Shown here one piece after another: positions 1 to 57,437 of a stretch of DNA of 64,000 nt. Every line of letters starts with the position of its first letter. Position 1 is the stretch's first letter. The position numbers and the translations under genes are program-made. The notes beneath the pieces are model-generated. The model was not told where the DNA came from, did no database searches, and worked only from the letters and a program-made list of their open reading frames with translations. Source of the DNA: Escherichia coli (lineage in GTDB: Bacteria; Pseudomonadota; Gammaproteobacteria; Enterobacterales; Enterobacteriaceae); NCBI RefSeq assembly GCF_003334385.1, contig NZ_QOWN01000022.1; one strand, 5' to 3'.

Positions 1-143
1 AGCAACGCGCGCTGGCGCAGGGGCTGCTCCTGCTGACCTGTGGCGCATACGGCAACGTGATTCGCTTCCTGTATCCGCTGACCATCCCGGATGCGCAATT
101 CGATGCGGCAATGAAAATTTTGCAGGATGCGCTGAGCGATTAA
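1..143 (+). CDS. puuE: 3' end of a class-III aminotransferase gene (GABA/putrescine pathway type), partial at window edge
   Basis: ORF enters from the 5' edge and stops at TAA 141-143; C-terminal peptide ...GAYGNVIRFLYPLTIPDAQFDAAMKILQDALSD; lies immediately upstream of pspF as in K-12. Confidence 0.55.
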   Translation, partial: QRALAQGLLLLTCGAYGNVIRFLYPLTIPDAQFDAAMKILQDALSD

Positions 144-164
144 TAGCCCAACGCAATAATGTCT

Positions 165-245
165 GATGCGCTGCGCTTATCAGGCCTGCAAACGACGTAT
201 TGATTATGTATGCCGAATAAAGCATTCACGCCGCATCCGGCAAGT
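165..245. repeat. REP-like palindromic element in puuE-pspF intergenic region
   Basis: GC-rich imperfect palindromes of REP type (gcctgcaaacgacg ... cacgccgcatccggcaag). Confidence 0.4.
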
Positions 246-262
246 TGTATTGCTCAACTTCG

Positions 263-1240
263 CTAAATCTGGTGCTTTTTCAACAACGCGCGGAACTGAT
301 GATAAGTTAACCCCAGTAATTCAGCCGCGCGCTTCTGGTTATATTTCCCTTGTTGCAAACTGAGTTGCAGCAACTCTTTTTCCTGCTGCATCTGAAACTC
401 ACGTAAATCCAGCGGCAGTGTTGGAAGCGAGGTGGTTTCTGAAACGGCGATAGCGTCTTCAGGCGGACGCCGTTTAAAGGGATCAATAATGATGTCATCA
501 AGCGGATAATCGCTGGTGCCGTGGCGATACACTGAACGTTCCACCACGTTTTTCAATTCACGAATATTTCCCGGCCAACGATAATTCAGCAATGTTTCTC
601 TGGCGCGCTCCGTAAACCCCGGGAACAGAGGCAGCTTGATTTCCCGACACATCTGGATGGCAAAGTATTCTGCCATCAACATTATGTCGCTTTCGCGCTC
701 GCGCAGTGGTGGCAGTTGTACAACATCAAAAGCCAGTCGGTCGAGCAGGTCAGCGCGAAAAGTGCCTTCATTGACCATCGCCGGGAGATCGGCATTCGTC
801 GCGCATACCAACCGCACATTCACCTGCAATGGCTGGCTGCCGCCAACGCGCTCCAGTTCACCGTACTCAATCACGCGCAATAATTTCTCCTGCACCATCA
901 TCGGTGCCGTAGCGAGTTCATCAAGAAATAGCGTACCGCCGTCGGCACGTTCAAATCTCCCTGGATGACGTTTTTGCGCACCGGTAAACGCCCCCGCTTC
1001 GTGACCAAACAGTTCGGAATCCAGCAGATTTTCATTTAACGCCGCGCAGTTAAGGGAAATAAACGGCCCTTGCCAACGGGAGGAGAGATAATGCAGGCGG
1101 CTGGCAATCAGCTCTTTACCGGTGCCGCGTTCGCCGATGATGAGCACCGGTTTGTCCAGCGGTGCGAGATGCGAAACCTGTTCCAGCACTTCGAGAAAGC
1201 TGTTCGCCTCACCAAGTAAATTATCTTTGTATTCTGCCAT
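263..1240 (-). CDS. pspF: sigma54-dependent psp operon transcriptional activator (AAA+ enhancer-binding protein)
   Basis: ORF track 263..1255; recognised PspF sequence starting MAEYKDNLLGEANSF (internal Met 5 codons into ORF); Walker A GERGTGKE; C-terminal HTH. Confidence 0.93.
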   Translation of the reverse strand: MAEYKDNLLGEANSFLEVLEQVSHLAPLDKPVLIIGERGTGKELIASRLHYLSSRWQGPFISLNCAALNENLLDSELFGHEAGAFTGAQKRHPGRFERADGGTLFLDELATAPMMVQEKLLRVIEYGELERVGGSQPLQVNVRLVCATNADLPAMVNEGTFRADLLDRLAFDVVQLPPLRERESDIMLMAEYFAIQMCREIKLPLFPGFTERARETLLNYRWPGNIRELKNVVERSVYRHGTSDYPLDDIIIDPFKRRPPEDAIAVSETTSLPTLPLDLREFQMQQEKELLQLSLQQGKYNQKRAAELLGLTYHQFRALLKKHQI

Positions 1241-1334
1241 GATGAAATTCGCCACTTGTTAGTGTAATTCGCTAACTCATCCTGGCATGTTGCTGTTGAT
1301 TCTTCAATCAGATCTTTATAAATCAAAAAGATAA

Positions 1335-2075
<741 letters not shown>

Positions 2076-2128
2076 TAACATCCAGGCGGCGTCCGAACGC
2101 GCCGCCGCTCATCGTCTAAGGAGTACTT

Positions 2129-2353
2129 ATGAGCGCGCTATTTCTGGCTATTCCGTTAACCATTTTTGTGCTGTTTGTTTTACCGATCTGGTTATGGCTG
2201 CATTACAGCAATCGTTCTGGTCGCAGTGAATTGTCGCAAAGTGAGCAGCAGCGATTAGCGCAACTGGCTGATGAAGCAAAACGGATGCGCGAACGTATTC
2301 AGGCGCTGGAATCTATTCTTGATGCAGAACATCCGAACTGGAGGGATCGCTAA
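2129..2353 (+). CDS. pspB: phage shock protein B (membrane)
   Basis: 74-aa ORF with N-terminal TM helix; operon position. Confidence 0.92.
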   Translation: MSALFLAIPLTIFVLFVLPIWLWLHYSNRSGRSELSQSEQQRLAQLADEAKRMRERIQALESILDAEHPNWRDR

Positions 2354-2712
2354 TGGCGGGCATTAATCTCAATAAAAAATTATGGCGTATTCCACAGCAG
2401 GGCATGGTCCGCGGCGTCTGCGCCGGGATTGCCAACTATTTTGATGTACCGGTAAAACTGGTGCGTATCCTGGTGGTGCTGTCGATTTTCTTCGGTCTGG
2501 CGCTGTTTACCCTGGTTGCTTACATCATTTTGTCATTTGCGCTTGATCCAATGCCGGACAACATGGCCTTTGGTGAGCAGCTACCTTCCAGCAGCGAATT
2601 GCTGGATGAAGTCGACCGTGAACTGGCGGCAAGTGAAACGCGTTTACGCGAGATGGAACGTTATGTCACTTCCGATACTTTCACGTTACGTAGCCGTTTC
2701 CGTCAACTGTGA
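2353..2712 (+). CDS. pspC: phage shock protein C
   Basis: 119-aa ORF overlapping pspB stop (ATGA coupling); TM segment. Confidence 0.92.
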
Positions 2713-2720
2713 GGAAAGTT

Positions 2721-2942
2721 ATGAATACTCGCTGGCAACAGGCCGGGCAAAAGGTAAAGCCTGGTTTCAAATTAGCAGGCAAGCTGGTACTTCTTACCGC
2801 ACTGCGCTATGGCCCGGCGGGTGTGGCGGGCTGGGCGATAAAATCAGTTGCTCGCCGACCGCTGAAAATGTTGCTGGCTGTGGCGCTGGAACCGCTGTTA
2901 AGTCGGGCTGCTAATAAACTGGCACAGCGTTATAAAAGGTGA
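2721..2942 (+). CDS. pspD: phage shock protein D
   Basis: ORF track 2709..2942; recognised PspD begins [11 protein letters not shown] at internal Met. Confidence 0.85.
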
Positions 2943-3016
2943 GGGGAGTTTCGCAAAAATTGTTAAATCTCAGGCGTATAATGGATGGCAATTTTCATCC
3001 ATAGAAGGACGCTTAC

Positions 3017-3331
3017 ATGTTTAAAAAAGGCTTACTTGCTCTGGCACTGGTGTTTTCACTGCCCGTTTTCGCCGCTGAACACTGGATCGATGTTCGTGTT
3101 CCAGAGCAGTATCAGCAAGAGCACGTTCAGGGGGCCATCAATATTCCCCTGAAGGAAGTGAAAGAGCGCATTGCCACCGCCGTTCCGGATAAAAACGACA
3201 CCGTGAAAGTGTATTGCAATGCCGGACGCCAGTCAGGGCAAGCAAAAGAGATCCTTAGCGAGATGGGATATACCCACGTTGAGAACGCCGGTGGCCTGAA
3301 AGACATCGCAATGCCGAAGGTCAAAGGTTAA
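3017..3331 (+). CDS. pspE: periplasmic rhodanese (thiosulfate sulfurtransferase)
   Basis: 104-aa ORF with signal peptide and rhodanese active-site Cys (CNAGRQS). Confidence 0.92.
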   Translation: MFKKGLLALALVFSLPVFAAEHWIDVRVPEQYQQEHVQGAINIPLKEVKERIATAVPDKNDTVKVYCNAGRQSGQAKEILSEMGYTHVENAGGLKDIAMPKVKG

Positions 3332-3344
3332 AAGAATTCACCAT

Positions 3345-3373
3345 GAGCGGCGCTTATGCGCCGTTTTTTTTTC
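3345..3373 (+). terminator. intrinsic terminator after pspE
   Basis: GC hairpin gcggcgc-ttat-gcgccg followed by T9 run. Confidence 0.8.
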
Positions 3374-3543
3374 TGTCACACCTTATTTACATCCCCATAG
3401 ATTATTTGCGTCAGCTCACAAATACGCTTTTTCCCTGGTAAAAAATGATTTCCTGCGTGACTAAAACCCTTGTGCTCAATTGACAGTTTATTTTCTGCGG
3501 AGTAGTCTCTCGTTTCATGGGACCGCTACCACGGAAAGGCAAC

Positions 3544-5223
3544 ATGAAACAGAAAATTACGGATTACCTGGACGAAATCTACGGTGGAACATTTACCGCA
3601 ACTCATTTACAGAAACTTGTAACGCGTCTTGAGAGTGCGAAACGATTAATTACACAGCGACGTAAAAAACACTGGGATGAAAGTGATGTCGTGTTAATTA
3701 CCTATGCCGATCAATTTCACAGCAATGATTTAAAACCATTACCCACATTTAATCAGTTTTACCATCAATGGCTGCAAAGCATTTTTTCACATGTTCATTT
3801 GTTGCCGTTTTATCCATGGTCATCTGATGATGGCTTTTCGGTAATTGATTATCATCAGGTCGCCAGTGAAGCGGGGGAGTGGCAGGATATTCAGCAACTC
3901 GGTGAATGCAGTCATTTAATGTTTGATTTTGTCTGCAACCATATGTCGGCAAAAAGTGAATGGTTTAAAAACTATTTACAACAGCATCCAGGTTTTGAAG
4001 ATTTTTTTATTGCCGTTGACCCGCAAACCGATCTCAGCGCCGTCACTCGCCCGCGTGCGTTACCGTTATTAACGCCATTCCAGATGCGCGATCATTCAAC
4101 GCGCCATTTATGGACCACCTTTAGTGACGATCAAATTGACCTGAATTACCGTAGCCCTGAAGTGTTGCTGGCGATGGTGGATGTTTTACTCTGTTACCTT
4201 GCGAAAGGTGCTGAGTATGTCCGCCTGGATGCCGTTGGCTTTATGTGGAAAGAGCCGGGAACAAGCTGCATCCATCTGGAAAAAACACATCTGATTATCA
4301 AACTGTTACGGTCGATTATTGATAACGTTGCGCCAGGTACAGTGATCATTACCGAGACCAATGTTCCGCATAAAGACAACATTGCTTACTTTGGCGCAGG
4401 CGATGACGAAGCACATATGGTGTACCAGTTCTCGCTGCCGCCACTGGTGCTGCATGCGGTGCAAAAACAGAACGTTGAGGCGCTTTGTGCGTGGGCGCAA
4501 AACCTGACACTACCTTCCAGCAACACCACCTGGTTTAACTTCCTCGCCTCTCACGATGGCATCGGGCTAAACCCGCTACGGGGCTTGTTGCCTGAAAGCG
4601 AAATATTAGAGCTGGTCGAGGCGTTACAGCAGGAAGGTGCATTAGTAAACTGGAAAAATAATCCCGACGGTACACGCAGTCCGTATGAAATAAATGTGAC
4701 CTATATGGATGCGTTAAGCCGCCGTGAGAGTAGCGATGAAGAACGTTGCGCCAGGTTTATCCTTGCCCATGCGATTTTGTTAAGTTTCCCCGGTGTGCCA
4801 GCGATATATATTCAAAGTATTCTTGGCTCGCGTAATGATTACGCAGGTGTCGAAAAACTCGGATATAACCGTGCGATTAACCGTAAAAAATATCACAGTA
4901 AAGAGATAACCCGAGAACTGAACGATGAAGCTACATTAAGGCATGCGGTATATCATGAGTTGTCGCGTTTAATTACACTTCGTCGCAGCCATAACGAGTT
5001 TCATCCGGATAATAATTTTACCATTGATACGATTAATTCATCCGTAATGCGTATTCAAAGAAGTAACGCTGATGGTAATTGTCTGACTGGATTGTTTAAT
5101 GTCAGTAAAAATATTCAGCATGTAAATATTACTAATCTGCATGGTCGGGATCTGATTAGTGAAGTTGATATATTGGGTAATGAAATAACGCTGCGCCCCT
5201 GGCAGGTTATGTGGATTAAATAA
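3544..5223 (+). CDS. ycjM: GH13-family sucrose-phosphorylase-like enzyme (glucosylglycerate phosphorylase)
   Basis: ORF track 3517..5223; start placed at internal ATG 3544 (MKQKITDYL) with GGAAAGG RBS; synteny. Confidence 0.88.
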   Translation: MKQKITDYLDEIYGGTFTATHLQKLVTRLESAKRLITQRRKKHWDESDVVLITYADQFHSNDLKPLPTFNQFYHQWLQSIFSHVHLLPFYPWSSDDGFSVIDYHQVASEAGEWQDIQQLGECSHLMFDFVCNHMSAKSEWFKNYLQQHPGFEDFFIAVDPQTDLSAVTRPRALPLLTPFQMRDHSTRHLWTTFSDDQIDLNYRSPEVLLAMVDVLLCYLAKGAEYVRLDAVGFMWKEPGTSCIHLEKTHLIIKLLRSIIDNVAPGTVIITETNVPHKDNIAYFGAGDDEAHMVYQFSLPPLVLHAVQKQNVEALCAWAQNLTLPSSNTTWFNFLASHDGIGLNPLRGLLPESEILELVEALQQEGALVNWKNNPDGTRSPYEINVTYMDALSRRESSDEERCARFILAHAILLSFPGVPAIYIQSILGSRNDYAGVEKLGYNRAINRKKYHSKEITRELNDEATLRHAVYHELSRLITLRRSHNEFHPDNNFTIDTINSSVMRIQRSNADGNCLTGLFNVSKNIQHVNITNLHGRDLISEVDILGNEITLRPWQVMWIK

Positions 5224-5236
5224 AAAGGAACATCTC

Positions 5237-6529
5237 ATGATTAAATCAAAAATCGTGCTGTTATCAGCACTGGTTTCATGCGCCCTGATTTCAGGCTGTA
5301 AAGAAGAAAATAAAACGAATGTATCCATCGAATTTATGCATTCTTCGGTGGAGCAGGAGCGCCAGGCCGTTATCAGTAAATTGATTGCCCGTTTTGAAAA
5401 AGAAAACCCTGGCATCACCGTTAAGCAAGTGCCCGTGGAAGAAGATGCCTATAACACTAAAGTCATTACTCTTTCACGTAGCGGTTCGCTGCCGGAAGTG
5501 ATCGAAACCAGCCATGACTACGCCAAAGTGATGGACAAAGAGCAGCTTATCGATCGCAAAGCGGTTGCCACAGTCATCAGCAACGTTGGTGAAGGCGCGT
5601 TTTACGATGGCGTACTGCGTATTGTGCGTACCGAAGATGGTAGCGCATGGACCGGTGTTCCTGTCAGCGCCTGGATTGGCGGTATCTGGTATCGCAAAGA
5701 TGTGCTGGCAAAAGCGGGGCTTGAGGAGCCGAAAAACTGGCAACAGCTGCTGGACGTTGCACAGAAACTGAATGACCCGGCGAATAAAAAATACGGCATT
5801 GCGCTGCCTACAGCAGAAAGCGTGTTGACGGAACAATCCTTCTCCCAGTTTGCGTTATCCAACCAGGCTAACGTCTTTAACGCCGAAGGCAAAATCACCC
5901 TTGATACACCAGAGATGATGCAGGCACTGACCTATTACCGCGACCTTGCTGCCAACACTATGCCGGGTTCTAACGACATCATGGAAGTGAAAGACGCCTT
6001 TATGAACGGCACCGCGCCGATGGCGATTTACTCCACCTATATCCTTCCGGCTGTGATTAAAGAAGGCGACCCGAAAAACGTCGGTTTCGTGGTGCCAACC
6101 GAGAAAAACTCTGCGGTCTACGGCATGTTGACCTCGCTGACCATTACCGCCGGGCAAAAGACCGAAGAGACGGAAGCAGCAGAAAAATTTGTCACCTTTA
6201 TGGAGCAGGCAGACAACATTGCCGACTGGGTGATGATGTCGCCAGGTGCTGCGCTGCCGGTGAATAAAGCGGTGGTGACTACCGCCACCTGGAAAGACAA
6301 CGACGTTATTAAGGCGCTGGGTGAACTACTGAATCAGCTAATCGGTGAACTGCCAAATATTCAGGTTTTTGGCGCAGTAGGGGATAAAAACTTTACCCGC
6401 ATGGGTGATGTGACGGGTTCTGGCGTGGTGAGTTCAATGGTGCATAACGTCACCGTGGGTAAAGCCGATCTCTCTACTACGCTGCAAGCGAGCCAGAAAA
6501 AACTGGATGAACTGATCGAACAGCACTAA
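5237..6529 (+). CDS. ycjN: sugar ABC transporter periplasmic binding lipoprotein
   Basis: 430-aa ORF with signal peptide and lipobox (LISGC). Confidence 0.9.
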   Translation: MIKSKIVLLSALVSCALISGCKEENKTNVSIEFMHSSVEQERQAVISKLIARFEKENPGITVKQVPVEEDAYNTKVITLSRSGSLPEVIETSHDYAKVMDKEQLIDRKAVATVISNVGEGAFYDGVLRIVRTEDGSAWTGVPVSAWIGGIWYRKDVLAKAGLEEPKNWQQLLDVAQKLNDPANKKYGIALPTAESVLTEQSFSQFALSNQANVFNAEGKITLDTPEMMQALTYYRDLAANTMPGSNDIMEVKDAFMNGTAPMAIYSTYILPAVIKEGDPKNVGFVVPTEKNSAVYGMLTSLTITAGQKTEETEAAEKFVTFMEQADNIADWVMMSPGAALPVNKAVVTTATWKDNDVIKALGELLNQLIGELPNIQVFGAVGDKNFTRMGDVTGSGVVSSMVHNVTVGKADLSTTLQASQKKLDELIEQH

Positions 6530-6549
6530 ACCCAGGACAGGAATCCGCA

Positions 6550-7431
6550 ATGAACAGGCTTTTTTCAGGTCGTTCCGATATGCCCTTTGCGCTGCTGCTT
6601 CTCGCGCCCAGCTTATTACTGCTGGGCGGTCTGGTGGCGTGGCCGATGGTGTCGAATATCGAAATCAGTTTTTTACGTCTGCCGCTCAATCCCAACATCG
6701 AGTCAACGTTTGTTGGGGTGAGCAACTATGTGCGTATCCTCTCCGATCCCGGCTTCTGGCATTCGCTGTGGATGACGGTCTGGTATACCGCGCTGGTGGT
6801 GGCGGGCAGCACCGTGCTCGGGCTGGCGGTGGCGATGTTTTTCAACCGCGAGTTCCGCCTGCGCAAAACCGCGCGTTCGCTGGTGATCCTCTCCTACGTA
6901 ACGCCGTCCATTTCGCTGGTGTTCGCCTGGAAATACATGTTCAACAACGGCTACGGCATTGTTAACTACCTCGGCGTCGATCTTCTGCATCTCTATGAGC
7001 AGGCACCGCTGTGGTTCGATAATCCGGGCAGTAGCTTTGTGCTGGTGGTGCTGTTCGCCATCTGGCGCTACTTCCCGTATGCCTTTATCTCGTTTCTGGC
7101 GATTTTGCAGACCATCGACAAATCGCTGTACGAAGCGGCAGAGATGGATGGCGCTAATGCCTGGCAACGGTTTCGTATCGTCACGCTGCCCGCAATTATG
7201 CCGGTCCTGGCGACGGTGGTGACACTGCGCACCATCTGGATGTTCTACATGTTCGCGGATGTTTATTTGCTGACGACCAAGGTCGATATTCTCGGTGTAT
7301 ATCTCTACAAAACCGCCTTTGCCTTTAATGATTTAGGAAAAGCGGCGGCGATCTCGGTGGTGCTCTTCATCATTATTTTCGCTGTCATTCTGCTGACCAG
7401 GAAACGGGTGAACCTCAATGGCAACAAATAA
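6550..7431 (+). CDS. ycjO: sugar ABC transporter permease
   Basis: 293-aa multi-TM ORF. Confidence 0.9.
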   Translation: MNRLFSGRSDMPFALLLLAPSLLLLGGLVAWPMVSNIEISFLRLPLNPNIESTFVGVSNYVRILSDPGFWHSLWMTVWYTALVVAGSTVLGLAVAMFFNREFRLRKTARSLVILSYVTPSISLVFAWKYMFNNGYGIVNYLGVDLLHLYEQAPLWFDNPGSSFVLVVLFAIWRYFPYAFISFLAILQTIDKSLYEAAEMDGANAWQRFRIVTLPAIMPVLATVVTLRTIWMFYMFADVYLLTTKVDILGVYLYKTAFAFNDLGKAAAISVVLFIIIFAVILLTRKRVNLNGNK

Positions 7432-8260
7432 ACGCACACTCAGTCGCATCGGTTTTTACTGCGGGCTGGCGCTGTTTCTCATCATCACGCTGTTTCCATT
7501 TTTTGTGATGCTGATGACCTCGTTCAAGGGCGCGAAAGAGGCGATCTCACTGCATCCTACGCTGCTGCCGCAGCAGTGGACGCTGGAGCATTACGTCGAC
7601 ATTTTTAACCCGATGATTTTCCCGTTTGTCGACTACTTCCGTAACAGTCTGGTGGTGTCTGTGGTTTCATCCGTGGTGGCGGTATTCCTCGGCATTCTTG
7701 GGGCTTACGCGCTTTCCCGCCTGCGCTTTAAAGGTCGGATGACCATCAACGCCAGCTTTTACACGGTGTATATGTTCTCTGGCATTTTGCTGGTGGTGCC
7801 GCTTTTCAAAATCATCACCGCGCTTGGCATTTACGACACTGAGATGGCGCTGATCATCACCATGGTGACGCAAACTCTGCCCACCGCCGTGTTTATGCTG
7901 AAAAGCTACTTCGACACCATCCCCGATGAGATCGAAGAAGCGGCGATGATGGATGGCCTCAACCGTCTGCAAATTATCTTCCGCATCACCGTGCCGTTGG
8001 CGATGTCCGGGCTGATATCCGTGTTCGTCTACTGCTTTATGGTGGCGTGGAACGACTATCTGTTTGCGTCGATTTTCCTCTCCAGCGCCAGCAATTTCAC
8101 CTTACCGGTGGGCCTGAACGCGCTGTTCAGTACGCCAGATTACATCTGGGGACGGATGATGGCGGCCTCACTGGTGACCGCATTGCCGGTGGTGATTATG
8201 TATGCGCTTTCGGAACGTTTTATTAAGAGTGGTTTGACCGCCGGTGGCGTGAAGGGCTAA
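7418..8260 (+). CDS. ycjP: sugar ABC transporter permease
   Basis: 280-aa multi-TM ORF overlapping ycjO end. Confidence 0.9.
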   Translation: MATNKRTLSRIGFYCGLALFLIITLFPFFVMLMTSFKGAKEAISLHPTLLPQQWTLEHYVDIFNPMIFPFVDYFRNSLVVSVVSSVVAVFLGILGAYALSRLRFKGRMTINASFYTVYMFSGILLVVPLFKIITALGIYDTEMALIITMVTQTLPTAVFMLKSYFDTIPDEIEEAAMMDGLNRLQIIFRITVPLAMSGLISVFVYCFMVAWNDYLFASIFLSSASNFTLPVGLNALFSTPDYIWGRMMAASLVTALPVVIMYALSERFIKSGLTAGGVKG

Positions 8261-8290
8261 AGCGGCCAGTTTCTTTACAAGGAGTTTTAA

Positions 8291-9343
8291 ATGAAAAAGT
8301 TAGTAGCCACAGCACCGCGTGTTGCTGCGCTGGTTGAGTATGAAGATCGGGCGATTTTAGCTAATGAAGTGAAGATCCGCGTGCGTTTCGGCGCACCGAA
8401 ACACGGAACGGAAGTGGTCGACTTCCGCGCCGCCAGCCCGTTTATTGATGAAGACTTTAACGGCGAATGGCAGATGTTCACTCCGCGTCCGGCAGATGCG
8501 CCGCGCGGCATTGAGTTTGGCAAATTCCAGCTTGGCAACATGGTGGTTGGCGACATTATCGAGTGCGGCAGCGACGTTACCGACTACGCGGTGGGCGACA
8601 GCGTATGCGGCTACGGCCCGCTCTCCGAGACGGTCATCATTAACGCAGTGAATAACTACAAGCTGCGCAAAATGCCGCAAGGCAGCTCCTGGAAAAACGC
8701 CGTCTGCTACGACCCGGCGCAGTTTGCCATGAGCGGCGTGCGCGATGCCAACGTGCGCGTAGGGGATTTTGTGGTGGTGGTAGGGCTTGGCGCAATCGGT
8801 CAAATTGCCATCCAACTGGCTAAACGCGCTGGCGCTTCTGTGGTGATTGGCGTCGATCCTATCGCCCATCGCTGTGATATTGCCCGTCGCCACGGCGCGG
8901 ATTTCTGCCTTAACCCCATCGGCACTGATGTAGGTAAAGAGATCAAAACGCTGACCGGCAAGCAGGGTGCCGATGTGATTATCGAAACCAGCGGCTACGC
9001 CGACGCGCTGCAATCGGCGCTCCGCGGTCTGGCTTATGGCGGCACCATCTCCTATGTCGCGTTTGCCAAGCCGTTTGCCGAAGGTTTTAACCTCGGACGC
9101 GAAGCGCATTTCAATAACGCCAAAATTGTCTTCTCTCGCGCGTGCAGCGAACCGAACCCGGATTATCCGCGCTGGAGCCGCAAGCGTATTGAAGAAACCT
9201 GTTGGGAACTGCTGATGAACGGTTATCTCAATTGCGAAGATTTAATCGACCCGGTGGTGACCTTTGCCAATAGCCCGGAAAGCTATATGCAGTATGTCGA
9301 CCAGCATCCGGAACAGAGCATCAAAATGGGCGTTACGTTTTAA
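8291..9343 (+). CDS. ycjQ: Zn-dependent sugar dehydrogenase (MDR family)
   Basis: 350-aa ORF with Rossmann motif GLGAIG. Confidence 0.88.
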   Translation: MKKLVATAPRVAALVEYEDRAILANEVKIRVRFGAPKHGTEVVDFRAASPFIDEDFNGEWQMFTPRPADAPRGIEFGKFQLGNMVVGDIIECGSDVTDYAVGDSVCGYGPLSETVIINAVNNYKLRKMPQGSSWKNAVCYDPAQFAMSGVRDANVRVGDFVVVVGLGAIGQIAIQLAKRAGASVVIGVDPIAHRCDIARRHGADFCLNPIGTDVGKEIKTLTGKQGADVIIETSGYADALQSALRGLAYGGTISYVAFAKPFAEGFNLGREAHFNNAKIVFSRACSEPNPDYPRWSRKRIEETCWELLMNGYLNCEDLIDPVVTFANSPESYMQYVDQHPEQSIKMGVTF

Positions 9344-9361
9344 TTCAAAGGAATGAAAAAA

Positions 9362-10150
9362 ATGAAAATCGGCACACAGAATCAGGCGTTCTTTCCGGAA
9401 AACATTCTGGAGAAATTTCGTTATATCAAAGAGATGGGCTTCGATGGTTTTGAGATTGACGGCAAACTGCTGGTTAACAACATCGAAGAAGTCAAAGCGG
9501 CGATCAAAGAAACCGGTTTACCGGTGACCACCGCCTGCGGTGGCTATGACGGATGGATTGGCGACTTTATCGAAGAGCGTCGTCTTAATGGCTTAAAGCA
9601 GATCGAGCGCATTCTCGAAGCGCTGGCAGAAGTGGGCGGTAAAGGCATCGTCGTTCCGGCTGCGTGGGGCATGTTTACCTTCCGCTTACCGCCGATGACC
9701 TCGCCGCGTAGCCTGGACGGCGACCGCAAAATGGTGAGTGATTCCCTGCGCGTACTGGAACAGGTCGCCGCGCGTACCGGAACCGTGGTGTATCTCGAAC
9801 CGTTAAACCGCTATCAGGATCATATGATCAACACCCTCGCCGATGCCCGCCGTTACATCGTCGAAAACGATCTTAAACATGTACAGATTATCGGCGATTT
9901 CTATCACATGAATATCGAAGAAGATAACCTGGCGCAGGCGCTGCATGACAACCGCGACCTGCTCGGTCATGTGCATATTGCGGATAACCATCGCTACCAG
10001 CCGGGCAGCGGCACCCTGGATTTCCACGCGCTGTTTGAACAGCTGCGCGCGGATAACTATCAGGGCTATGTAGTGTACGAAGGGCGTATCCGGGCGGAAG
10101 ATCCTGCCCAGGCGTACCGTGATTCGTTGGCCTGGTTGCGTACCTGCTAA
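9362..10150 (+). CDS. ycjR: sugar-phosphate isomerase/epimerase (TIM barrel, xylose isomerase-like)
   Basis: ORF track 9353..10150; start likely MKIGTQNQ. Confidence 0.85.
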   Translation: MKIGTQNQAFFPENILEKFRYIKEMGFDGFEIDGKLLVNNIEEVKAAIKETGLPVTTACGGYDGWIGDFIEERRLNGLKQIERILEALAEVGGKGIVVPAAWGMFTFRLPPMTSPRSLDGDRKMVSDSLRVLEQVAARTGTVVYLEPLNRYQDHMINTLADARRYIVENDLKHVQIIGDFYHMNIEEDNLAQALHDNRDLLGHVHIADNHRYQPGSGTLDFHALFEQLRADNYQGYVVYEGRIRAEDPAQAYRDSLAWLRTC

Positions 10151-10159
10151 GAGGTCTTT

Positions 10160-11215
10160 GTGAAAAGTGCAATGACAAGCTCTCCGCTGCGGGTCGCGAT
10201 AATAGGCGCAGGCCAGGTGGCGGATAAGGTTCATGCTTCGTACTACTGCACCCGCAACGATCTGGAACTGGTGGCTGTCTGTGACAGCCGCCTTTCCCAG
10301 GCGCAGGCGCTGGCAGAAAAATACGGGAATGCATCCGTGTGGGACGATCCGCAGGCCATGCTGCTGGCGGTGAAACCTGATGTGGTTAGCGTCTGCTCAC
10401 CTAACCGTTTTCATTACGAACATACCCTGATGGCACTGGAAGCGGGCTGCCATGTGATGTGCGAAAAACCGCCCGCCATGACGCCAGAACAGGCGCGGGA
10501 AATGTGCGATACCGCGCGCAAACTGGGCAAGGTGCTGGCCTACGACTTTCACCATCGTTTTGCGCTCGATACGCAACAGCTGCGTGAACAGGTGACCAAC
10601 GGCGTTTTGGGAGAGATTTACGTTACCACCGCCCGCGCCCTGCGTCGCTGCGGCGTTCCCGGCTGGGGTGTCTTTACCAATAAAGAACTGCAGGGTGGTG
10701 GCCCGCTGATCGACATCGGCATTCATATGCTGGATGCTGCGATGTATGTGCTGGGCTTTCCGGCGGTGAAAAGCGTGAATGCGCATAGCTTTCAAAAGAT
10801 CGGCACGCAAAAGAGCTGTGGTCAATTTGGTGAGTGGGATCCGGCAACTTACAGCGTCGAAGATTCGCTGTTTGGCACCATTGAATTTCATAACGGCGGC
10901 ATTCTGTGGCTGGAAACGTCATTTGCACTCAACATCCGCGAACAGTCGATTATGAACGTCAGCTTTTGTGGTGATAAAGCTGGTGCGACGCTGTTTCCAG
11001 CACATATCTACACCGATAACAACGGTGAATTAATGACGCTGATGCAACGGGAAATGGCAGACGACAACCGCCATTTGCGCAGCATGGAAGCCTTTATCAA
11101 TCACGTACAGGGCAAGCCCGTGATGATAGCCGACGCCGAGCAGGGGTACATCATCCAGCAACTGGTGGCGGCGTTGTATCAATCCGCAGAAACAGGGACG
11201 CGTGTGGAATTATGA
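10160..11215 (+). CDS. ycjS: Gfo/Idh/MocA-family NAD-dependent oxidoreductase
   Basis: 351-aa ORF, N-terminal Rossmann motif IIGAGQVA; probable GTG start. Confidence 0.85.
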   Translation: MKSAMTSSPLRVAIIGAGQVADKVHASYYCTRNDLELVAVCDSRLSQAQALAEKYGNASVWDDPQAMLLAVKPDVVSVCSPNRFHYEHTLMALEAGCHVMCEKPPAMTPEQAREMCDTARKLGKVLAYDFHHRFALDTQQLREQVTNGVLGEIYVTTARALRRCGVPGWGVFTNKELQGGGPLIDIGIHMLDAAMYVLGFPAVKSVNAHSFQKIGTQKSCGQFGEWDPATYSVEDSLFGTIEFHNGGILWLETSFALNIREQSIMNVSFCGDKAGATLFPAHIYTDNNGELMTLMQREMADDNRHLRSMEAFINHVQGKPVMIADAEQGYIIQQLVAALYQSAETGTRVEL

Positions 11216-13479
11216 CCAGGCCAGTAACGTTATCAGAACCCCATTTCAGCCAGCATACCCTGAACAAGTATGCATCGCTGATGGCGCAGGGGAACGGCTA
11301 TCTTGGGCTTCGCGCCAGCCATGAAGAAGATTACACGCGCCAGACGCGAGGGATGTATCTGGCGGGGCTGTATCATCGGGCGGGAAAAGGTGAAATCAAC
11401 GAACTGGTGAACCTGCCTGATGTCGTGGGGATGGAGATTGCCATAAATGGTGAGGTTTTCTCGTTATCCCACGAAGCCTGGCAGCGTGAGCTTGACTTTG
11501 CCAGTGGCGAATTACGCCGCAATGTTGTCTGGCGTACCAGCAACGGCTCAGGTTACACCATCGCCAGCCGTCGCTTTGTTTCGGCAGACCAACTGCCGCT
11601 CATTGCGCTGGAAATCACTATTACGCCACTGGACGCCGACGCGTCAGTGCTGATTTCAACAGGCATTGACGCCACGCAAACCAATCACGGTCGCCAACAT
11701 CTCGACGAAACCCAGGTGCGGGTGTTTGGTCAGCATCTGATGCAGGGGAGCTACACCACCCAGGATGGACGCAGTGATGTGGCCATCAGCTGTTGCTGTA
11801 AGGTGAGCGGTGATGTGCAGCAATGCTATACCGCCAAAGAGCGCCGTTTACTGCAACATACCAGTGCGCAGCTTCATGCAGGCGAGACAATGACGTTGCA
11901 AAAACTGGTGTGGATCGACTGGCGGGATGACAGGCAAGCTGCTTTAGACGAGTGGGGCAGCGCGTCGCTTCGCCAGCTTGAAATGTGCGCGCAGCAGAGT
12001 TACGACCAACTTCTTGCAGCATCAACAGAAAACTGGCGTCAATGGTGGCAGAAACGTCGTATCACGGTAAATGGCGGCGAAGCGCACGATCAGCAAGCGT
12101 TAGATTATGCGCTTTATCATCTGCGCATCATGACGCCTGCCCACGACGAGCGCAGCAGCATTGCGGCAAAAGGCTTAACCGGCGAAGGCTACAAAGGCCA
12201 CGTTTTCTGGGATACAGAAGTATTTTTGTTACCGTTTCATCTGTTTAGCGATCCGACGGTTGCCCGAAGTTTACTGCGTTATCGCTGGCACAACTTGCCA
12301 GGCGCGCAGGAGAAAGCGCGACGCAACGGCTGGCAGGGCGCGCTATTTCCGTGGGAAAGCGCGCGCAGCGGCGAAGAAGAGACGCCGGAATTTGCCGCCA
12401 TTAACATTCGCACCGGGCTGCGGCAAAAAGTGGCCTCGGCGCAGGCGGAACATCATCTGGTGGCCGATATCGCCTGGGCGGTTATTCAATACTGGCAGAC
12501 CACGGGGGATGAAAGTTTCATTGCGCATGAAGGCATGGCGCTACTTCTGGAGACGGCAAAGTTCTGGATTAGCCGCGCGGTGAGAGTTAACGATCGTCTG
12601 GAAATTCATGATGTTATTGGGCCAGACGAATATACCGAACATGTCAATAATAATGCATACACCAGCTATATGGCCCGCTACAACGTTCAACAGGCGCTGA
12701 ATATTGCCCGCCAGTTCGGCTGTAGCGACGATGCGTTTATCCATCGCGCCGAAATGTTCCTCAAAGAGCTATGGATGCCAGAAATTCAGCCCGACGGCGT
12801 TTTGCCGCAGGATGATTCGTTTATGGCTAAGCCGGCGATTAATCTGGCGAAATACAAAGCGGCGGCGGGGAAGCAAACCATACTGCTGGATTATTCACGC
12901 GCAGAAGTGAACGAGATGCAGATCCTCAAACAAGCTGATGTGGTGATGCTCAATTACATGCTGCCGGAGCAGTTCTCAGCGGCATCGTGTCTTGCCAATC
13001 TGCAATTTTATGAACCGCGCACTATTCACGACTCGTCATTAAGTAAAGCAATCCACGGCATTGTTGCCGCACGCTGTGGCCTGCTGACCCAAAGTTATCA
13101 GTTCTGGCGCGAGGGGACTGAAATCGATCTTGGTGCTGATCCGCATAGTTGTGATGATGGTATCCATGCTGCCGCAACTGGCGCTATCTGGCTGGGGGCG
13201 ATTCAGGGTTTTGCCGGGGTGAGCGTGCGTGACGGTGAATTGCATCTCAATCCGGCGTTACCTGAGCAGTGGCAACAGTTGTCTTTCCCTCTGTTCTGGC
13301 AGGGCTGCGAATTACAGGTCACTCTTGACGCGCAGCGTATTGCGATTCGAACTTCTGCGCCCGTTTCACTGCGTTTGAACGGTCAGCTTATAACCGTGGC
13401 TGAAGAATCTGTTTTCTGTTTGGGTGATTTTATTTTGCCCTTCAATGGGACCGCTACCAAACATCAGGAGGATGAATGA
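11212..13479 (+). CDS. ycjT: GH65-family glycoside phosphorylase (kojibiose phosphorylase)
   Basis: 755-aa ORF overlapping ycjS stop; synteny. Confidence 0.9.
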
Positions 13480-14135
13480 AACTGCAAGGGGTAATTTTCG
13501 ATCTGGATGGTGTAATCACCGATACCGCGCATCTGCATTTCCAGGCGTGGCAGCAGATTGCCGCTGAAATTGGCATCAGCATTGATGCGCAGTTTAACGA
13601 ATCCCTAAAAGGGATCAGCCGCGATGAGTCTCTGCGGCGCATTCTGCAACACGGGGGCAAAGAGGGCGACTTTAACTCGCAGGAGAGGGCGCAACTGGCG
13701 TATCGCAAAAATCTGCTCTATGTCCACTCACTACGCGAGTTGACGGTCAACGCTGTTCTACCCGGCATTCGCTCTTTGCTGGCAGATCTCCGTGCACAGC
13801 AGATCTCGGTTGGGCTGGCTTCTGTCTCCCTGAATGCGCCGACGATTTTAGCGGCGCTGGAGCTGCGCGAGTTTTTCACCTTCTGCGCGGATGCTTCCCA
13901 ACTTAAAAACTCGAAACCGGACCCGGAAATCTTTCTCGCCGCCTGTGCAGGGCTGGGCGTGCCGCCGCAGGCATGTATCGGCATTGAAGATGCGCAGGCG
14001 GGCATTGACGCCATTAACGCCAGCGGTATGCGCTCGGTGGGGATCGGCGCGGGCTTAACCGGGGCGCAATTACTGTTGCCTTCAACGGAATCACTCACCT
14101 GGCCGCGGTTATCGGCCTTCTGGCAAAACGTATAG
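13476..14135 (+). CDS. ycjU: beta-phosphoglucomutase (HAD superfamily)
   Basis: 219-aa ORF with HAD motif [11 protein letters not shown]. Confidence 0.92.
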
Positions 14136-14148
14136 CAAAGGAATCAAC

Positions 14149-15231
14149 ATGGCTCAGCTTTCGTTACAACATATTCAAAAAATCTACGATAACCAGGTGC
14201 ATGTGGTGAAGGACTTCAACCTGGAAATTGCCGATAAAGAGTTCATCGTGTTTGTCGGCCCGTCGGGCTGCGGTAAGTCGACCACCCTGCGCATGATTGC
14301 CGGGCTTGAGGAGATCAGCGGCGGCGATCTGTTGATCGACGGCAAACGAATGAATGACGTTCCAGCCAAAGCACGCAATATAGCGATGGTGTTCCAGAAC
14401 TACGCGTTGTATCCGCATATGACGGTTTACGACAACATGGCGTTTGGTCTGAAGATGCAAAAAATCGCCAAAGAGGTGATTGATGAGCGGGTGAACTGGG
14501 CGGCGCAAATTCTCGGCCTGCGTGAGTACCTGAAACGTAAGCCGGGGGCGCTTTCCGGCGGGCAACGTCAGCGAGTGGCGCTTGGGCGGGCGATTGTACG
14601 CGAAGTGGGCGTGTTTTTAATGGATGAACCGCTCTCTAACCTTGATGCCAAGCTGCGCGTGCAAATGCGCGCAGAGATCAGCAAGCTGCATCAGAAACTG
14701 AACACCACCATGATCTACGTGACCCACGATCAGACCGAAGCGATGACCATGGCGACGCGGATTGTGATTATGAAAGACGGGATTGTTCAGCAAGTAGGTG
14801 CGCCGAAAACCGTTTATAACCAACCCGCGAATATGTTTGTTTCCGGATTTATTGGATCACCAGCGATGAATTTTATTCGCGGCACGATCGATGGCGATAA
14901 ATTCGTTACGGAAACGCTTAAATTAACCATTCCCGAAGAGAAATTAGCGGTTCTGAAAACACAGGAAAGTTTGCATAAGCCCATCGTGATGGGAATACGA
15001 CCGGAAGATATTCATCCGGACGCGCAAGAGGAAAATAACATTTCCGCCAAAATTAGCGTGGCAGAATTAACCGGTGCGGAATTTATGCTCTACACCACGG
15101 TTGGGGGGCACGAGTTAGTGGTCCGTGCTGGTGCGTTAAATGATTATCATGCAGGAGAAAATATCACTATTCATTTTGATATGACGAAATGTCATTTCTT
15201 TGATGCAGAAACGGAAATAGCAATTCGCTAA
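14149..15231 (+). CDS. ycjV: sugar ABC transporter ATP-binding protein (MalK-like), apparently intact
   Basis: 360-aa ORF with Walker A GPSGCGKST, signature LSGGQRQR, Walker B FLMDEPLSNLD. Confidence 0.9.
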   Translation: MAQLSLQHIQKIYDNQVHVVKDFNLEIADKEFIVFVGPSGCGKSTTLRMIAGLEEISGGDLLIDGKRMNDVPAKARNIAMVFQNYALYPHMTVYDNMAFGLKMQKIAKEVIDERVNWAAQILGLREYLKRKPGALSGGQRQRVALGRAIVREVGVFLMDEPLSNLDAKLRVQMRAEISKLHQKLNTTMIYVTHDQTEAMTMATRIVIMKDGIVQQVGAPKTVYNQPANMFVSGFIGSPAMNFIRGTIDGDKFVTETLKLTIPEEKLAVLKTQESLHKPIVMGIRPEDIHPDAQEENNISAKISVAELTGAEFMLYTTVGGHELVVRAGALNDYHAGENITIHFDMTKCHFFDAETEIAIR

Positions 15232-15275
15232 ATACAGGGGGAAGGCATTCCCCCAGGATAATACAAGGAACAATA

Positions 15276-16181
15276 ATGAAAAAGTTATTACCCTGTACCG
15301 CACTGGTGATGTGTGCGGGAATGGCCTGCGCACAGGCCGAGGAAAGGAACGACTGGCACTTTAATATCGGCGCGATGTACGAAATAGAAAACGTCGAGGG
15401 TTATGGCGAAGATATGGATGGGCTGGCGGAGCCTTCAGTCTATTTTAATGCCGCCAACGGGCCGTGGAGAATTGCTCTGGCCTATTATCAGGAAGGGCCG
15501 GTAGATTATAGCGCGGGTAAACGTGGAACGTGGTTTGATCGCCCGGAGCTGGAGGTGCATTATCAGTTCCTCGAAAACGATGATTTCAGTTTCGGCCTGA
15601 CCGGCGGTTTCCGTAATTATGGTTATCACTACGTTGATGAACCGGGTAAAGACACGGCGAATATGCAGCGCTGGAAAATCGCGCCAGACTGGGATGTGAA
15701 ACTGACTGACGATTTACGTTTCAACGGTTGGTTGTCGATGTATAAATTTGCCAACGATCTGAACACTACCGGTTACGCTGATACCCGTGTCGAAACGGAA
15801 ACAGGTCTGCAATATACCTTCAACGAAACGGTTGCCTTGCGAGTGAACTATTATCTCGAGCGCGGCTTCAATATGGACGACAGCCGCAATAACGGTGAGT
15901 TTTCCACGCAAGAAATTCGCGCCTATTTGCCGCTGACGCTCGGCAACCACTCGGTGACGCCGTATACGCGCATTGGGCTGGATCGCTGGAGTAACTGGGA
16001 CTGGCAGGATGATATTGAACGTGAAGGCCATGATTTTAACCGTGTAGGTTTATTTTACGGTTATGATTTCCAGAACGGACTTTCCGTTTCGCTGGAATAC
16101 GCGTTTGAGTGGCAGGATCACGACGAAGGCGACAGTGATAAATTCCATTATGCAGGTGTCGCCGTAAATTACTCGTTCTGA
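15276..16181 (+). CDS. ompG: outer membrane porin OmpG
   Basis: 301-aa ORF with signal peptide, ends in aromatic residue (Phe), sequence recognised. Confidence 0.92.
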   Translation: MKKLLPCTALVMCAGMACAQAEERNDWHFNIGAMYEIENVEGYGEDMDGLAEPSVYFNAANGPWRIALAYYQEGPVDYSAGKRGTWFDRPELEVHYQFLENDDFSFGLTGGFRNYGYHYVDEPGKDTANMQRWKIAPDWDVKLTDDLRFNGWLSMYKFANDLNTTGYADTRVETETGLQYTFNETVALRVNYYLERGFNMDDSRNNGEFSTQEIRAYLPLTLGNHSVTPYTRIGLDRWSNWDWQDDIEREGHDFNRVGLFYGYDFQNGLSVSLEYAFEWQDHDEGDSDKFHYAGVAVNYSF

Positions 16182-24008: not shown

Positions 24009-24191
24009 TCATCGATCTTGTATCACTTTTTTGCCGGAAGTTGTTTGCATTTTATTAGTTGGATAGGGTTTGTGGATTTTTGCTGGCTGACGGGCAAATA
24101 AAGTTTGTTTAATGGTTTGCTTATCTGCCAGTTGATTAATCACATGGCGGGCTATCTGACCGCCAGCACCAAGAATCAGTACATTTTTCAT
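24009..24191 (-). CDS. ymjC: small NAD-binding-fold fragment protein
   Basis: 60-aa ORF with Rossmann-like MKNVLILGAGGQIARHV; position between ycjY and mpaA. Confidence 0.6.
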   Translation of the reverse strand: MKNVLILGAGGQIARHVINQLADKQTIKQTLFARQPAKIHKPYPTNKMQTTSGKKVIQDR

Positions 24192-24261: not shown

Positions 24262-25182
24262 TTACAGAGTTTCCTCAAAGAACGGAGCTAATACTGAAAT
24301 TGCTTCAGCCACATAGGCTTTGCCGTCATAAAGATCCATATGGTTTGCGCCTTCAACAATGTGATAGCGTTTATCCTGGCTTGATGCTCGATCGTACAGG
24401 TCGTCACTCATCCATTTGCTCCCTGCCTGGCTGCCCGCCACAATCTGCGTCGGCTGAGTCAGGTACACTTCCGCCATATGGTAAGCATCATAGGTAATAA
24501 TCTGGTTAAGGCTGCGCAAAGTAGCGTAACCCGGTGCTGTTGGATACTGCGCGCGAGGGGGGTGGTAATACTCCCAGGCCTGACGCAGTTCTTCGTTCGG
24601 CGCATCGGACTCCTTCATTGGTGCCAGTGGCATAATGGCGTATTCTCCGCTGCTAATATCGCTGGTTCTGGCGTTTGAACCCGCTTCAACGTATGGCAGG
24701 GCATCAATAGATTTCACATTGTTTTCCCAACCATTACGGAATATCGAACCAATATTGACCGCACTAACGGTACCGATGGCCTTGATGCGGCGATCCTGAA
24801 TTGCAGCATTGGCTGTATATCCTGCACCGGCACAAATTCCCATCGCACCAATTCGGGTATTGTCGACATAAGAAAGCGTTGTCAGGTAATCAATCACGGC
24901 ACTGATGTCTTCAGTACGAATGTATGGGTTTTCTAACTGACGCGGCTCGCCGCCACTTTCACCTTGATAAGATGCGTCATAAGCAATAGTGACAAATCCC
25001 TTTTCCGCCAGTTTTTTGGCATAGGTTCCGGCCGTTTGTTCTTTAACGCCCCCACCTGGGTGAGATAACACAATTGCCTGATACTGACGGGTTTCATCAA
25101 ATTTTGGAGGGAAATAGATCACTGCAGACAAAGAGATGGTTGGATTATTGCTGTTAGTGAAGCTGACTTTATTATTCATCAT
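24262..25182 (-). CDS. ycjY: alpha/beta hydrolase
   Basis: ORF track 24262..25194; start may be Met 1 or Met 5 of ORF. Confidence 0.85.
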   Translation of the reverse strand: MMNNKVSFTNSNNPTISLSAVIYFPPKFDETRQYQAIVLSHPGGGVKEQTAGTYAKKLAEKGFVTIAYDASYQGESGGEPRQLENPYIRTEDISAVIDYLTTLSYVDNTRIGAMGICAGAGYTANAAIQDRRIKAIGTVSAVNIGSIFRNGWENNVKSIDALPYVEAGSNARTSDISSGEYAIMPLAPMKESDAPNEELRQAWEYYHPPRAQYPTAPGYATLRSLNQIITYDAYHMAEVYLTQPTQIVAGSQAGSKWMSDDLYDRASSQDKRYHIVEGANHMDLYDGKAYVAEAISVLAPFFEETL

Positions 25183-29251: not shown

Positions 29252-29494
29252 TGTTTTATCAGGCTCCTCCAGATAATTGTCGTCATGCCGGAAACCCCTG
29301 GCGGGGCTATTTTACCGCGACAATTCATTCAGATCATCAATAGTCAGGGAAGGAAGTAGCAACATTAGCTAACTAATCAATGCGTTGATTGTAAATCCAG
29401 CTAAGAGGTGAGGTTTTCAGAGCAGACAACGGTGAAATGTCATGGTATTGTTACGTTTAGGTAACAAGAAATTTGTCTGCACAAGGATTACATC

Positions 29495-55642: not shown

Positions 55643-55657
55643 TTGCCGAAGGCGCTT

Positions 55658-56089
55658 ATGGCAAAAGTATTTACACAAGAAGAGCGAGAAAAAATTAAAG
55701 GGCAGGTTGTTGAGCTAGTACGCCGGAGTGGGCGCGAGACGTTACGGCAACTGGAAGCCAAGACAGGTGCGACAAGATATCTGATGAGCGTTCTCGCCAG
55801 AGAGCTGGTTGCCAGTGGCGATGTATACAACTCTGGTTACGGGTTATTCCCGTCTGAACAGGCTCGTAAGGACTGGCAAAATGCCCGCAAAAAACTATCT
55901 AGGGCAAAGGTGAAGAAACCATCTGTGGTTGATCCGGACCTTATCTGGTCATTACCAGACGGAGAAATACGCCGCTACGACAGGCGTCTGAACATAATCT
56001 GTCGCGAGTGCCGGAAGAGCGAAGTTATGCAGCGTGTGCTGGCGTTTTATCAGAATGGTTTTCGAGAGAGGCTTGGAGATCAGGGATGA
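55658..56089 (+). CDS. hypothetical prophage protein (about 143 aa)
   Basis: ORF track 55643..56089; GC-typical codon usage, abuts ydaW stop; no recognisable motif except basic stretch and CRECRK. Confidence 0.5.
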   Translation: MAKVFTQEEREKIKGQVVELVRRSGRETLRQLEAKTGATRYLMSVLARELVASGDVYNSGYGLFPSEQARKDWQNARKKLSRAKVKKPSVVDPDLIWSLPDGEIRRYDRRLNIICRECRKSEVMQRVLAFYQNGFRERLGDQG

Positions 56090-56282: not shown

Positions 56283-57437
56283 ATGGATTATTTATCAGAA
56301 GTGTTAAAAATCATTGAAGGTGCAACAAAGGCAAATGCTTCGATGGCTAGTAATTATGCTGGGTTGCTGGCAGATAAGCTCGAACAAAAAGGGGAGGTCA
56401 AGCAAGCCAGAATGATAAGAGAAAGGTTGCTTAGAGCTCCCCAGGCGTTGGCAGGAGCTCAAAGGGCTGGAGGTGGGATATCTCTGGGCTCATTACCGGT
56501 AGATATTGATAGTCGACTCAACACTGTTGATGTCAGTTATCCTAAATTAGACAGTTCAGAGATTTTTCTGCCTGCAGCAATCAGTACCCGTGTTGAAGAG
56601 TTTATCACTAATGTTCAACGTTATGATGAGTTTGTTAAAGCTGATGCAGCATTGCCGAGTCGTATGCTCGTGTATGGAAAGCCAGGAACAGGTAAGACTA
56701 TGTTATCTAAGTACATCGCTACCCGCTTAGATTTTCCACTTCTTACAGTGCGTTGCGATACTTTGATTAGTAGTTTATTGGGACAAACCAGCAAAAATCT
56801 TAGACAGGTTTTCGATTATGTAATGCAGAGGCCATCAGTGCTTTTTTTAGACGAATTTGATGCTTTAGCTGGAGCAAGAGGTAATGAGAGAGATATAGGT
56901 GAGCTTCAGCGAGTTGTCATTTCACTATTGCAGAATATGGATGCGGCATCAGAGGATACGGTAATTATTGCCTCAACTAACCATGAGCAACTTCTGGATC
57001 CTGCAATCTGGAGGCGATTTAGCTTCAGAATTCCAATGCCTCTGCCTGACATACATCAGAGAGAGTTAATTTGGAAAAATCGTTTAAAGAATATGATATG
57101 TAGCGATCTAGATTTAAGTGATTTATCAAGAAAATCGGAAGGATTATCCGGAGCAATAATTGAACAGGTGAGCTTGGATGCACGTAGGGATGCAGTTATT
57201 GAAGGTGCAAGTGTGATAAATCACCACAAATTGTATAGGCGTTTGTATCTTGCTCAATCGCTTATGGAAGGTGTAAATTTAAGCACTTACGAAGATGAAA
57301 TTCGTTGGTTACGTTCTAAAGATAAAAAATTATTTTCTATCAGAGTTCTTGCTAATTTGTACAAACTTACATCAAGAGTAATTTCAAACATTCTGAAGGA
57401 GTCAGGAGCATATGAGCAGAAGGGGTACACAGTTTAG
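56283..57437 (+). CDS. AAA+ ATPase (classic AAA clade), first gene of cargo cassette
   Basis: 384-aa ORF; Walker A GKPGTGKT (56676-56699), Walker B VLFLDEFD (about 56841-56861), sensor-1 IASTN, Arg finger region PAIWRRF; AT-rich. Confidence 0.85.
   Translation: MDYLSEVLKIIEGATKANASMASNYAGLLADKLEQKGEVKQARMIRERLLRAPQALAGAQRAGGGISLGSLPVDIDSRLNTVDVSYPKLDSSEIFLPAAISTRVEEFITNVQRYDEFVKADAALPSRMLVYGKPGTGKTMLSKYIATRLDFPLLTVRCDTLISSLLGQTSKNLRQVFDYVMQRPSVLFLDEFDALAGARGNERDIGELQRVVISLLQNMDAASEDTVIIASTNHEQLLDPAIWRRFSFRIPMPLPDIHQRELIWKNRLKNMICSDLDLSDLSRKSEGLSGAIIEQVSLDARRDAVIEGASVINHHKLYRRLYLAQSLMEGVNLSTYEDEIRWLRSKDKKLFSIRVLANLYKLTSRVISNILKESGAYEQKGYTV

Follow-up and report, generated by a model that had tools for sequence, protein, structure and literature searches.

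An intact ycjV transporter ATPase gene in Escherichia coli and its single-G frameshift in K-12

The gene ycjV, which encodes the ATP-binding subunit of a sugar-type ABC importer, is intact in the stretch of Escherichia coli DNA analyzed here (64,000 nucleotides of contig NZ_QOWN01000022.1, assembly GCF_003334385.1, hereafter called the window). The intact state is the norm for the species, and it is K-12 that is unusual rather than the window strain. Both the K-12 pseudogene and the presence of an intact allele elsewhere in E. coli are already known, so the feature is real and ordinary. We consider it very probable that the ycjV of the window is an ordinary functional allele, encoding the predicted ATPase of a CUT1/MalK-type importer made up of YcjN and YcjO/YcjP. 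The features on which the argument draws are the following, in coordinates of the window.

3544 to 14135, + strand: ycjM, N, O, P, Q, R, S, T and U/pgmB, which precede ycjV in the putative operon and serve catabolism and transport, full length against MG1655
5237 to 8260, + strand: ycjN (lipoprotein substrate-binding protein) with ycjO and ycjP (permeases), whose products are the predicted partners of YcjV, intact against MG1655 and the LR-33 annotation
14149 to 15231, + strand: ycjV, ABC-transporter ATP-binding subunit (nucleotide-binding domain, NBD, plus MalK-type regulatory domain), an ATG-started open reading frame of 360 amino acids
14606, + strand: T for C, a rare allele that causes YcjV A153V, two residues ahead of the Walker B strand
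15103 to 15108, + strand: run of six G (G6) at codons 317-320, which by alignment with MG1655 is a run of five (G5) in K-12
15237 to 15254, + strand: GC-rich hairpin with a 7-bp stem in the 44 nt that separate ycjV from ompG, found by a pattern scan (folding -13.6 kcal/mol, z -2.6)
15276 to 16181, + strand: ompG, monomeric porin of the outer membrane and last gene of the putative operon, intact, 301 amino acids
16292 to 17290, - strand: ycjW, LacI-type repressor of the ycj operon, identical to MG1655

The reading frame of ycjV has the signals and motifs expected of an expressed ABC ATPase. Its ATG is preceded at 8 nt by an AAGGA Shine-Dalgarno sequence and lies 13 nt beyond the stop codon of ycjU/pgmB, and the frame closes 44 nt ahead of ompG. 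The RefSeq annotation of LR-33, a near-identical strain, places an intact ycjV coding sequence at the equivalent coordinates. The NBD carries all of its hallmark elements in canonical order: Walker A (GPSGCGKS, residues 37-44), the Q-loop (Q83), the LSGGQ signature (residues 135-139), Walker B with its catalytic glutamate (VFLMDEP, 155-161), the D-loop (SNLD, 163-166), and the H-loop (H193). In Pfam, this region corresponds to ABC_tran (PF00005; residues 21-162, E 7.7e-31), and it is followed by OB_MalK (236-288, E 6.5e-14) and TOBE_2 (282-351, E 9.8e-10). ATPases of the CUT1/MalK-UgpC-MsmX type were defined by an NBD followed by OB_MalK and TOBE domains, in a total of about 360-380 amino acids, and YcjV has this arrangement, with both domains C-terminal to the NBD. 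The best NCBIfam model is NF008653, the UgpC subfamily, to which YcjV scores 482 bits, above the cutoff of 432 (E 1e-144); for the MalK equivalog NF008233 the score is 428 bits, short of the 568 required. Among solved structures, that of Bacillus subtilis MsmX (PDB 6yir) is the closest and aligns end to end at 64% identity (E 4.5e-148), and the structures of the CUT1 ATPases MalK, AlgS, and SugC also align with YcjV over its full length. The open reading frame and its homology are far above chance, and at the level of sequence comparison the 64%-identical solved homologue and the curated family models settle the family assignment. A preliminary description, made from the DNA letters, had proposed a 360-aa MalK-like ATPase with all nucleotide-binding motifs, and this was accurate in its exact reading frame, its motifs, and its matches in Pfam, NCBIfam, and the PDB.

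The corresponding locus of MG1655 (NC_000913.3) is annotated as two pseudogenes, ycjV b1318 (1380821..1381789) and ymjB b4524 (1381789..1381902), which together span 1082 bp compared with 1083 bp in the window. When the two are aligned there are only two differences, a 1-bp deletion of G in K-12 and a C/T polymorphism at 14606. The deletion shifts the K-12 frame after residue 320, and the product ends in TTVGGTS and a stop codon at 322 amino acids, without residues 321-360 (the last 40), which account for about the latter half of TOBE_2. The ymjB pseudogene of K-12 is the out-of-frame remainder of ycjV. The two pseudogene annotations thus follow from the loss of one G from G6, with the resulting frameshift and loss of TOBE residues; in the window, G6 is present at codons 317-320 and the frame is open to residue 360. 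The earlier statement that the MG1655 copy is an interrupted pseudogene is borne out by both the annotation and the aligned deletion, and the K-12 allele does not have the same uninterrupted length, the result that had been named as fatal to the idea. The TOBE barrel of MalK is part of the dimer interface. With about half of this barrel gone, the truncated YcjV of K-12 would by analogy be non-functional, and it is possible that MalK or UgpC may cross-energize the ycj importer in K-12.

The distribution of the two alleles was assessed by searching 5426 complete E. coli genomes with a 40-mer (G6) and a 39-mer (G5) centered on the G-run. Each query finds its own allele only, because every 28-base megablast seed must span the run. 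The G6 allele was found in 4609 of these genomes and G5 in 371, a sum of 4980 that compares with 4981 genomes holding at least 80% of ycjV, so that run lengths besides five or six are essentially absent. A ycjV match was absent in 424 of the 5426. The intact state is therefore found in about 92.5% of the E. coli genomes that carry ycjV, and in nearly all of those that are not K-12. Carriers of G5 are overwhelmingly K-12 and its laboratory derivatives, including MG1655, W3110, WG1, C600, MC4100, BW2952, XL1-Blue, J53, NCM3722, and others; the K-12-derivative genomes measure 4.5-4.7 Mb, and about 93% of the G5 genomes among the matches listed are laboratory derivatives of this size. An error in the K-12 reference was considered and rejected, as the 371 G5 genomes were sequenced independently and include WG1, W3110, C600, MC4100, and BW2952. 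Outside K-12, G5 occurs in strain 95-3192 (5.39 Mb), whose ycjV has 15 nucleotide mismatches to MG1655, and in the bovine isolates OkiPb01703 and OkiPb01710 (5.30 Mb), all of which are annotated as 'frameshifted'; PJ-T13 is a further G5 genome outside K-12. Either slippage occurred independently in these genomes or their assemblies contain homopolymer errors.

Lesions of other kinds are found in a few further genomes. In PSS-13, ycjV is interrupted by an IS1A insertion, and DXMF6-3R retains only the last 22% of the gene. In O157:H7 ATCC 35150, ycjV is intact, while the annotation gives a frameshift in ycjM and an internal stop in ycjN (598-3582; one genome). Which genes of the ycj cluster have been inactivated therefore varies with the lineage. 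This dispensable cluster is eroding in several lineages, and as a result an intact ycjV is no proof of use. Compared with O157:H7, the ycjV of the window has 21 nucleotide differences and 4 amino acid differences, one of which is the window's private change, and sequence divergence points clearly to purifying selection on the gene across phylogroups. Since breakage by the one-base deletion is limited to the K-12 lineage and a few other strains, the finding of an intact ycjV is correct but ordinary.

The surrounding cluster is also complete. In eleven neighbors (ycjM, N, O, P, Q, R, S, T, U, ompG, and ycjW), start and stop codons are in order, the length equals that in MG1655, and no stop codon falls inside the frame; the earlier claim of a complete ycjMNOPQRSTUV-ompG cluster was correct, with every gene full length and uninterrupted. 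Intergenic gaps range from -14 to +30 nt between ycjM and ycjU and from -14 to +44 nt when the series is extended to ompG, which is consistent with a single operon from ycjM to ompG. The hairpin in the ycjV-ompG spacer reads GGGGGAA-GGCA-TTCCCCC, and no run of T accompanies it on the + strand. Possible roles are those of a weak attenuator or of an element in mRNA processing or stability. The products encoded next to YcjV are those of a CUT1 importer. Both permeases contain an EAA coupling loop (EAAEMDG at 195 in YcjO, EAAMMDG at 174 in YcjP), and the N-terminus of YcjN has a lipobox and lipoprotein signal, so that YcjV is co-encoded with two EAA-loop permeases and an extracytoplasmic binding protein.

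Positions 1-25000 of the window, which contain the cluster, differ from LR-33 by 4 mismatches and are nearly identical to E. coli C and many other phylogroup-A-like genomes. The window differs from both LR-33 and MG1655 at 14606, at 16162 (ompG G296A), and at 24561 in the ycjY region. Between ycjM and ompG, window and MG1655 are separated by six nucleotide differences (5057, 5948, 6330, 11056, 14606, and 16162), all of them nonsynonymous. With O157:H7 as outgroup, ycjM Q505P, ycjN A238T, and ycjS M299I are derived in K-12; ycjN P365L (shared with LR-33), ycjV A153V, and ompG G296A are derived on the side of the window. Relaxed selection was considered as an explanation of these six differences and set aside, as six events split 3/3 between the lineages are not significant.

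The A153V substitution is the sole local peculiarity of the window's ycjV. A 40-mer carrying V153 has no match in the 5426 complete E. coli genomes, and the corresponding 40-mer with the C allele (A153) is found in 4880 of them; these counts dispose of the reverse notion, that V153 is common and the A153 of K-12 the oddity. The O157:H7 outgroup identifies V153 as the derived state. Draft E. coli assemblies do contain the exact V153 protein, on 7 contigs (EFT6993867.1 among others), which indicates a rare natural allele rather than a sequencing error. It could be argued that A153V impairs the full-length protein and that the window holds a cryptic loss-of-function allele. The rarity and derived state of V153 would fit such a view, as would its location, since residue 153 adjoins the equivalent of MsmX K154, which has been implicated in NBD function and which was aligned with S153 of MalK (PMC7658222). 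However, the substitution is conservative and leaves all catalytic motifs untouched, and the 7 draft contigs imply that the allele persists in a lineage. The position also varies within the family, its equivalent being Ala in MsmX and presumably Pro in MalK. Impairment by A153V thus seems improbable to us.

The G-run itself invites a second reading, in which G6 is a contingency site that toggles the ycj importer in the manner of phase variation and the window has been caught in the ON phase. The presence of G5 on at least one clearly non-K-12 haplotype, that of 95-3192, and in OkiPb01703 and OkiPb01710 is what such switching would produce. A run of six G is short for such a site, however, and a slipping tract is hard to reconcile with the near absence of lengths other than five and six (4980 of 4981 accounted for) or with a G5 class in which some 93% of the genomes among the matches listed are K-12-sized laboratory derivatives. 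The few outliers could themselves be homopolymer assembly errors, and we regard a phase-variable site as highly improbable. Homopolymer runs are prone to indels and a single G separates the intact gene from the pseudogene, but the reading of the window's G6 as a sequencing or assembly error, an extra G in a true G5 run, is effectively refuted by the presence of G6 in 4609 complete genomes, LR-33 and E. coli C among them, and by differences from K-12 in IS5, in prophage content, and at further sites, which show that the window is not from a K-12 strain.

What is known of the cluster is for the most part compatible with the reading of ycjV as an ordinary functional allele. YcjW represses ycjMNOPQRSTUV-ompG, and kojibiose frees it from DNA in vitro (PMC6599011). 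The enzymes include phosphorylases for kojibiose (YcjT) and glucosylglycerate (YcjM), a beta-phosphoglucomutase (YcjU), and YcjQRS, whose substrates are gulosides and glucosides (PMC11543891; MG1655 annotation). Counting against this reading, the binding protein YcjN bound none of the sugars with which it was screened, kojibiose included (PMC11543891). Full-length YcjV WP_000057985.1, a regular RefSeq entry with A153, has been purified and was found to be stable and ATPase-active (Leisico et al. 2020, PMC7658222). By analogy with related importers, YcjV would assemble with YcjNOP, and YcjNOPV would take up a sugar.

The mechanism of MalFGK2 is well established among type I ABC importers, and a similar cycle can be proposed for the ycj system. 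Substrate would cross the outer membrane via OmpG and then bind YcjN, while a homodimer of YcjV would sit under the YcjO/YcjP permease. Docking of YcjN on YcjOP would cause the YcjV dimer to close around two ATP, each held between the Walker A/B motifs of one subunit and the LSGGQ motif of the other. The groove formed at the Q-loop of YcjV would grip the EAA coupling helices in the two permease subunits, YcjO and YcjP, and flip the permease outward, and hydrolysis, with E160 as the catalytic base together with H193, would reset the cycle. The C-terminal OB/TOBE domain would keep the YcjV dimer together and might receive regulatory input. One transcript, controlled by the repressor YcjW, would encode the importer, OmpG, and the enzymes YcjM, Q, R, S, T, and U. 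The window strain, on this account, would never have undergone the G deletion of K-12.

The K-12 lesion in ycjV is listed in resequencing tables (PMC4786092), and the K-12 locus has been exploited as a neutral integration site (PMC10380740 and several others). An intact ycjV-like ABC transporter gene that is missing from MG1655 has been reported in K-12-like isolates, in a study that cites signature-tagged mutagenesis hits for bovine gut colonization by EHEC (PMC8009128). Kojibiose as the only carbon source does not support growth of MG1655, according to a passage in PMC6599011 that cites Mukherjee 2018. It is conceivable, although we hold it to be rather doubtful, that the frameshift in ycjV and not a lack of enzymes lies behind this failure to grow and behind the elusive substrate of the ycj system in K-12 studies; our literature search found no paper that tested the single-G deletion as the cause of the kojibiose or glucoside defect of K-12. 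If this were true, the natural substrate, be it kojibiose, glucosylglycerate, or a guloside or glucoside, would be taken up by strains whose cluster is intact and would support their growth, and repair of one G in K-12 would restore growth. Care must be taken in any case with ycj physiology worked out in K-12, including the catabolism of kojibiose, glucosylglycerate, and gulosides, the ligands of YcjN, and the induction of YcjW, as this background has a truncated importer ATPase. The proper background for work on ycj is a wild-type-like strain such as that of the window, or K-12 repaired by one G.

Elsewhere in the window, several further observations were made. The IS5F element that MG1655 has between ynaI and ynaJ is missing (~29369-29372). 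The window is otherwise collinear with MG1655 over the interval pspE to ydaW; identity is 99.96% outside the Rac prophage and 99.5% over the segment that includes the prophage. Between mpaA and ycjY, at 24054-24191 on the - strand, lies a partial remnant that LR-33 annotates as a 'NAD-dependent dehydratase' pseudogene; at this site O157:H7 and UPEC 26-1 have a full SDR-family oxidoreductase gene, and MG1655 annotates ymjC/ymjD. The Rac-like prophage diverges from the Rac of K-12 after about 55330 and encodes an IetA/IetS anti-phage defense pair (56283-59676, + strand), made up of two genes.

56283 to 57437, + strand: IetA, PADLOC E 9e-143
57412 to 59676, + strand: IetS, PADLOC E 2e-300

Upstream of this pair is a Ren-like exclusion gene (55643-56089), and downstream are NinB, an HNH-like gene, and antiterminator Q (60093-61521). 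The late region of the prophage contains two adjacent paralogous open reading frames on the + strand (62566-62994 and 63145-63540), both of which match phrog_5772.

Among known systems, the closest relative of the window protein is YcjV WP_000057985.1, the LR-33 protein. Both have 360 amino acids, of which 359 of 360 are identical with A153V as the only difference, and both genes occupy the same position between ycjU/pgmB and ompG. The ycjV/ymjB locus of K-12 MG1655 is orthologous, and its DNA is the same save at two positions, one of them the G-run that is G5 in K-12 and G6 in the window. B. subtilis MsmX (6yir), a multitask ATPase that serves several CUT1 importers, shares 64% identity and the same NBD plus OB/TOBE architecture, but msmX is an orphan gene, whereas ycjV lies inside its own transporter operon. 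The residues that mark multitask ATPases in MsmX, D77/R104/E110/K154, are N77/Q104/V110/G154 in the YcjV of the window. On these signature residues, and on the inability of YcjV to replace MsmX in B. subtilis (PMC7658222), an MsmX-type multitask role was rejected. The gene context, which is ycj and not ugpBAE, argues against orthology with UgpC. Orthology with MalK was rejected on the NCBIfam cutoff, and because its score falls under the MalK equivalog threshold (428 vs 568 bits), YcjV is best regarded as a MalK paralogue; to our knowledge, no partner regulation of the EIIAGlc or MalT kind is known for it. YcjV and E. coli MalK (PDB 1q12, 2r6g; MalFGK2) belong to the same fold family (E 2e-99) and have the nucleotide-binding motifs and the C-terminal regulatory domain in common.
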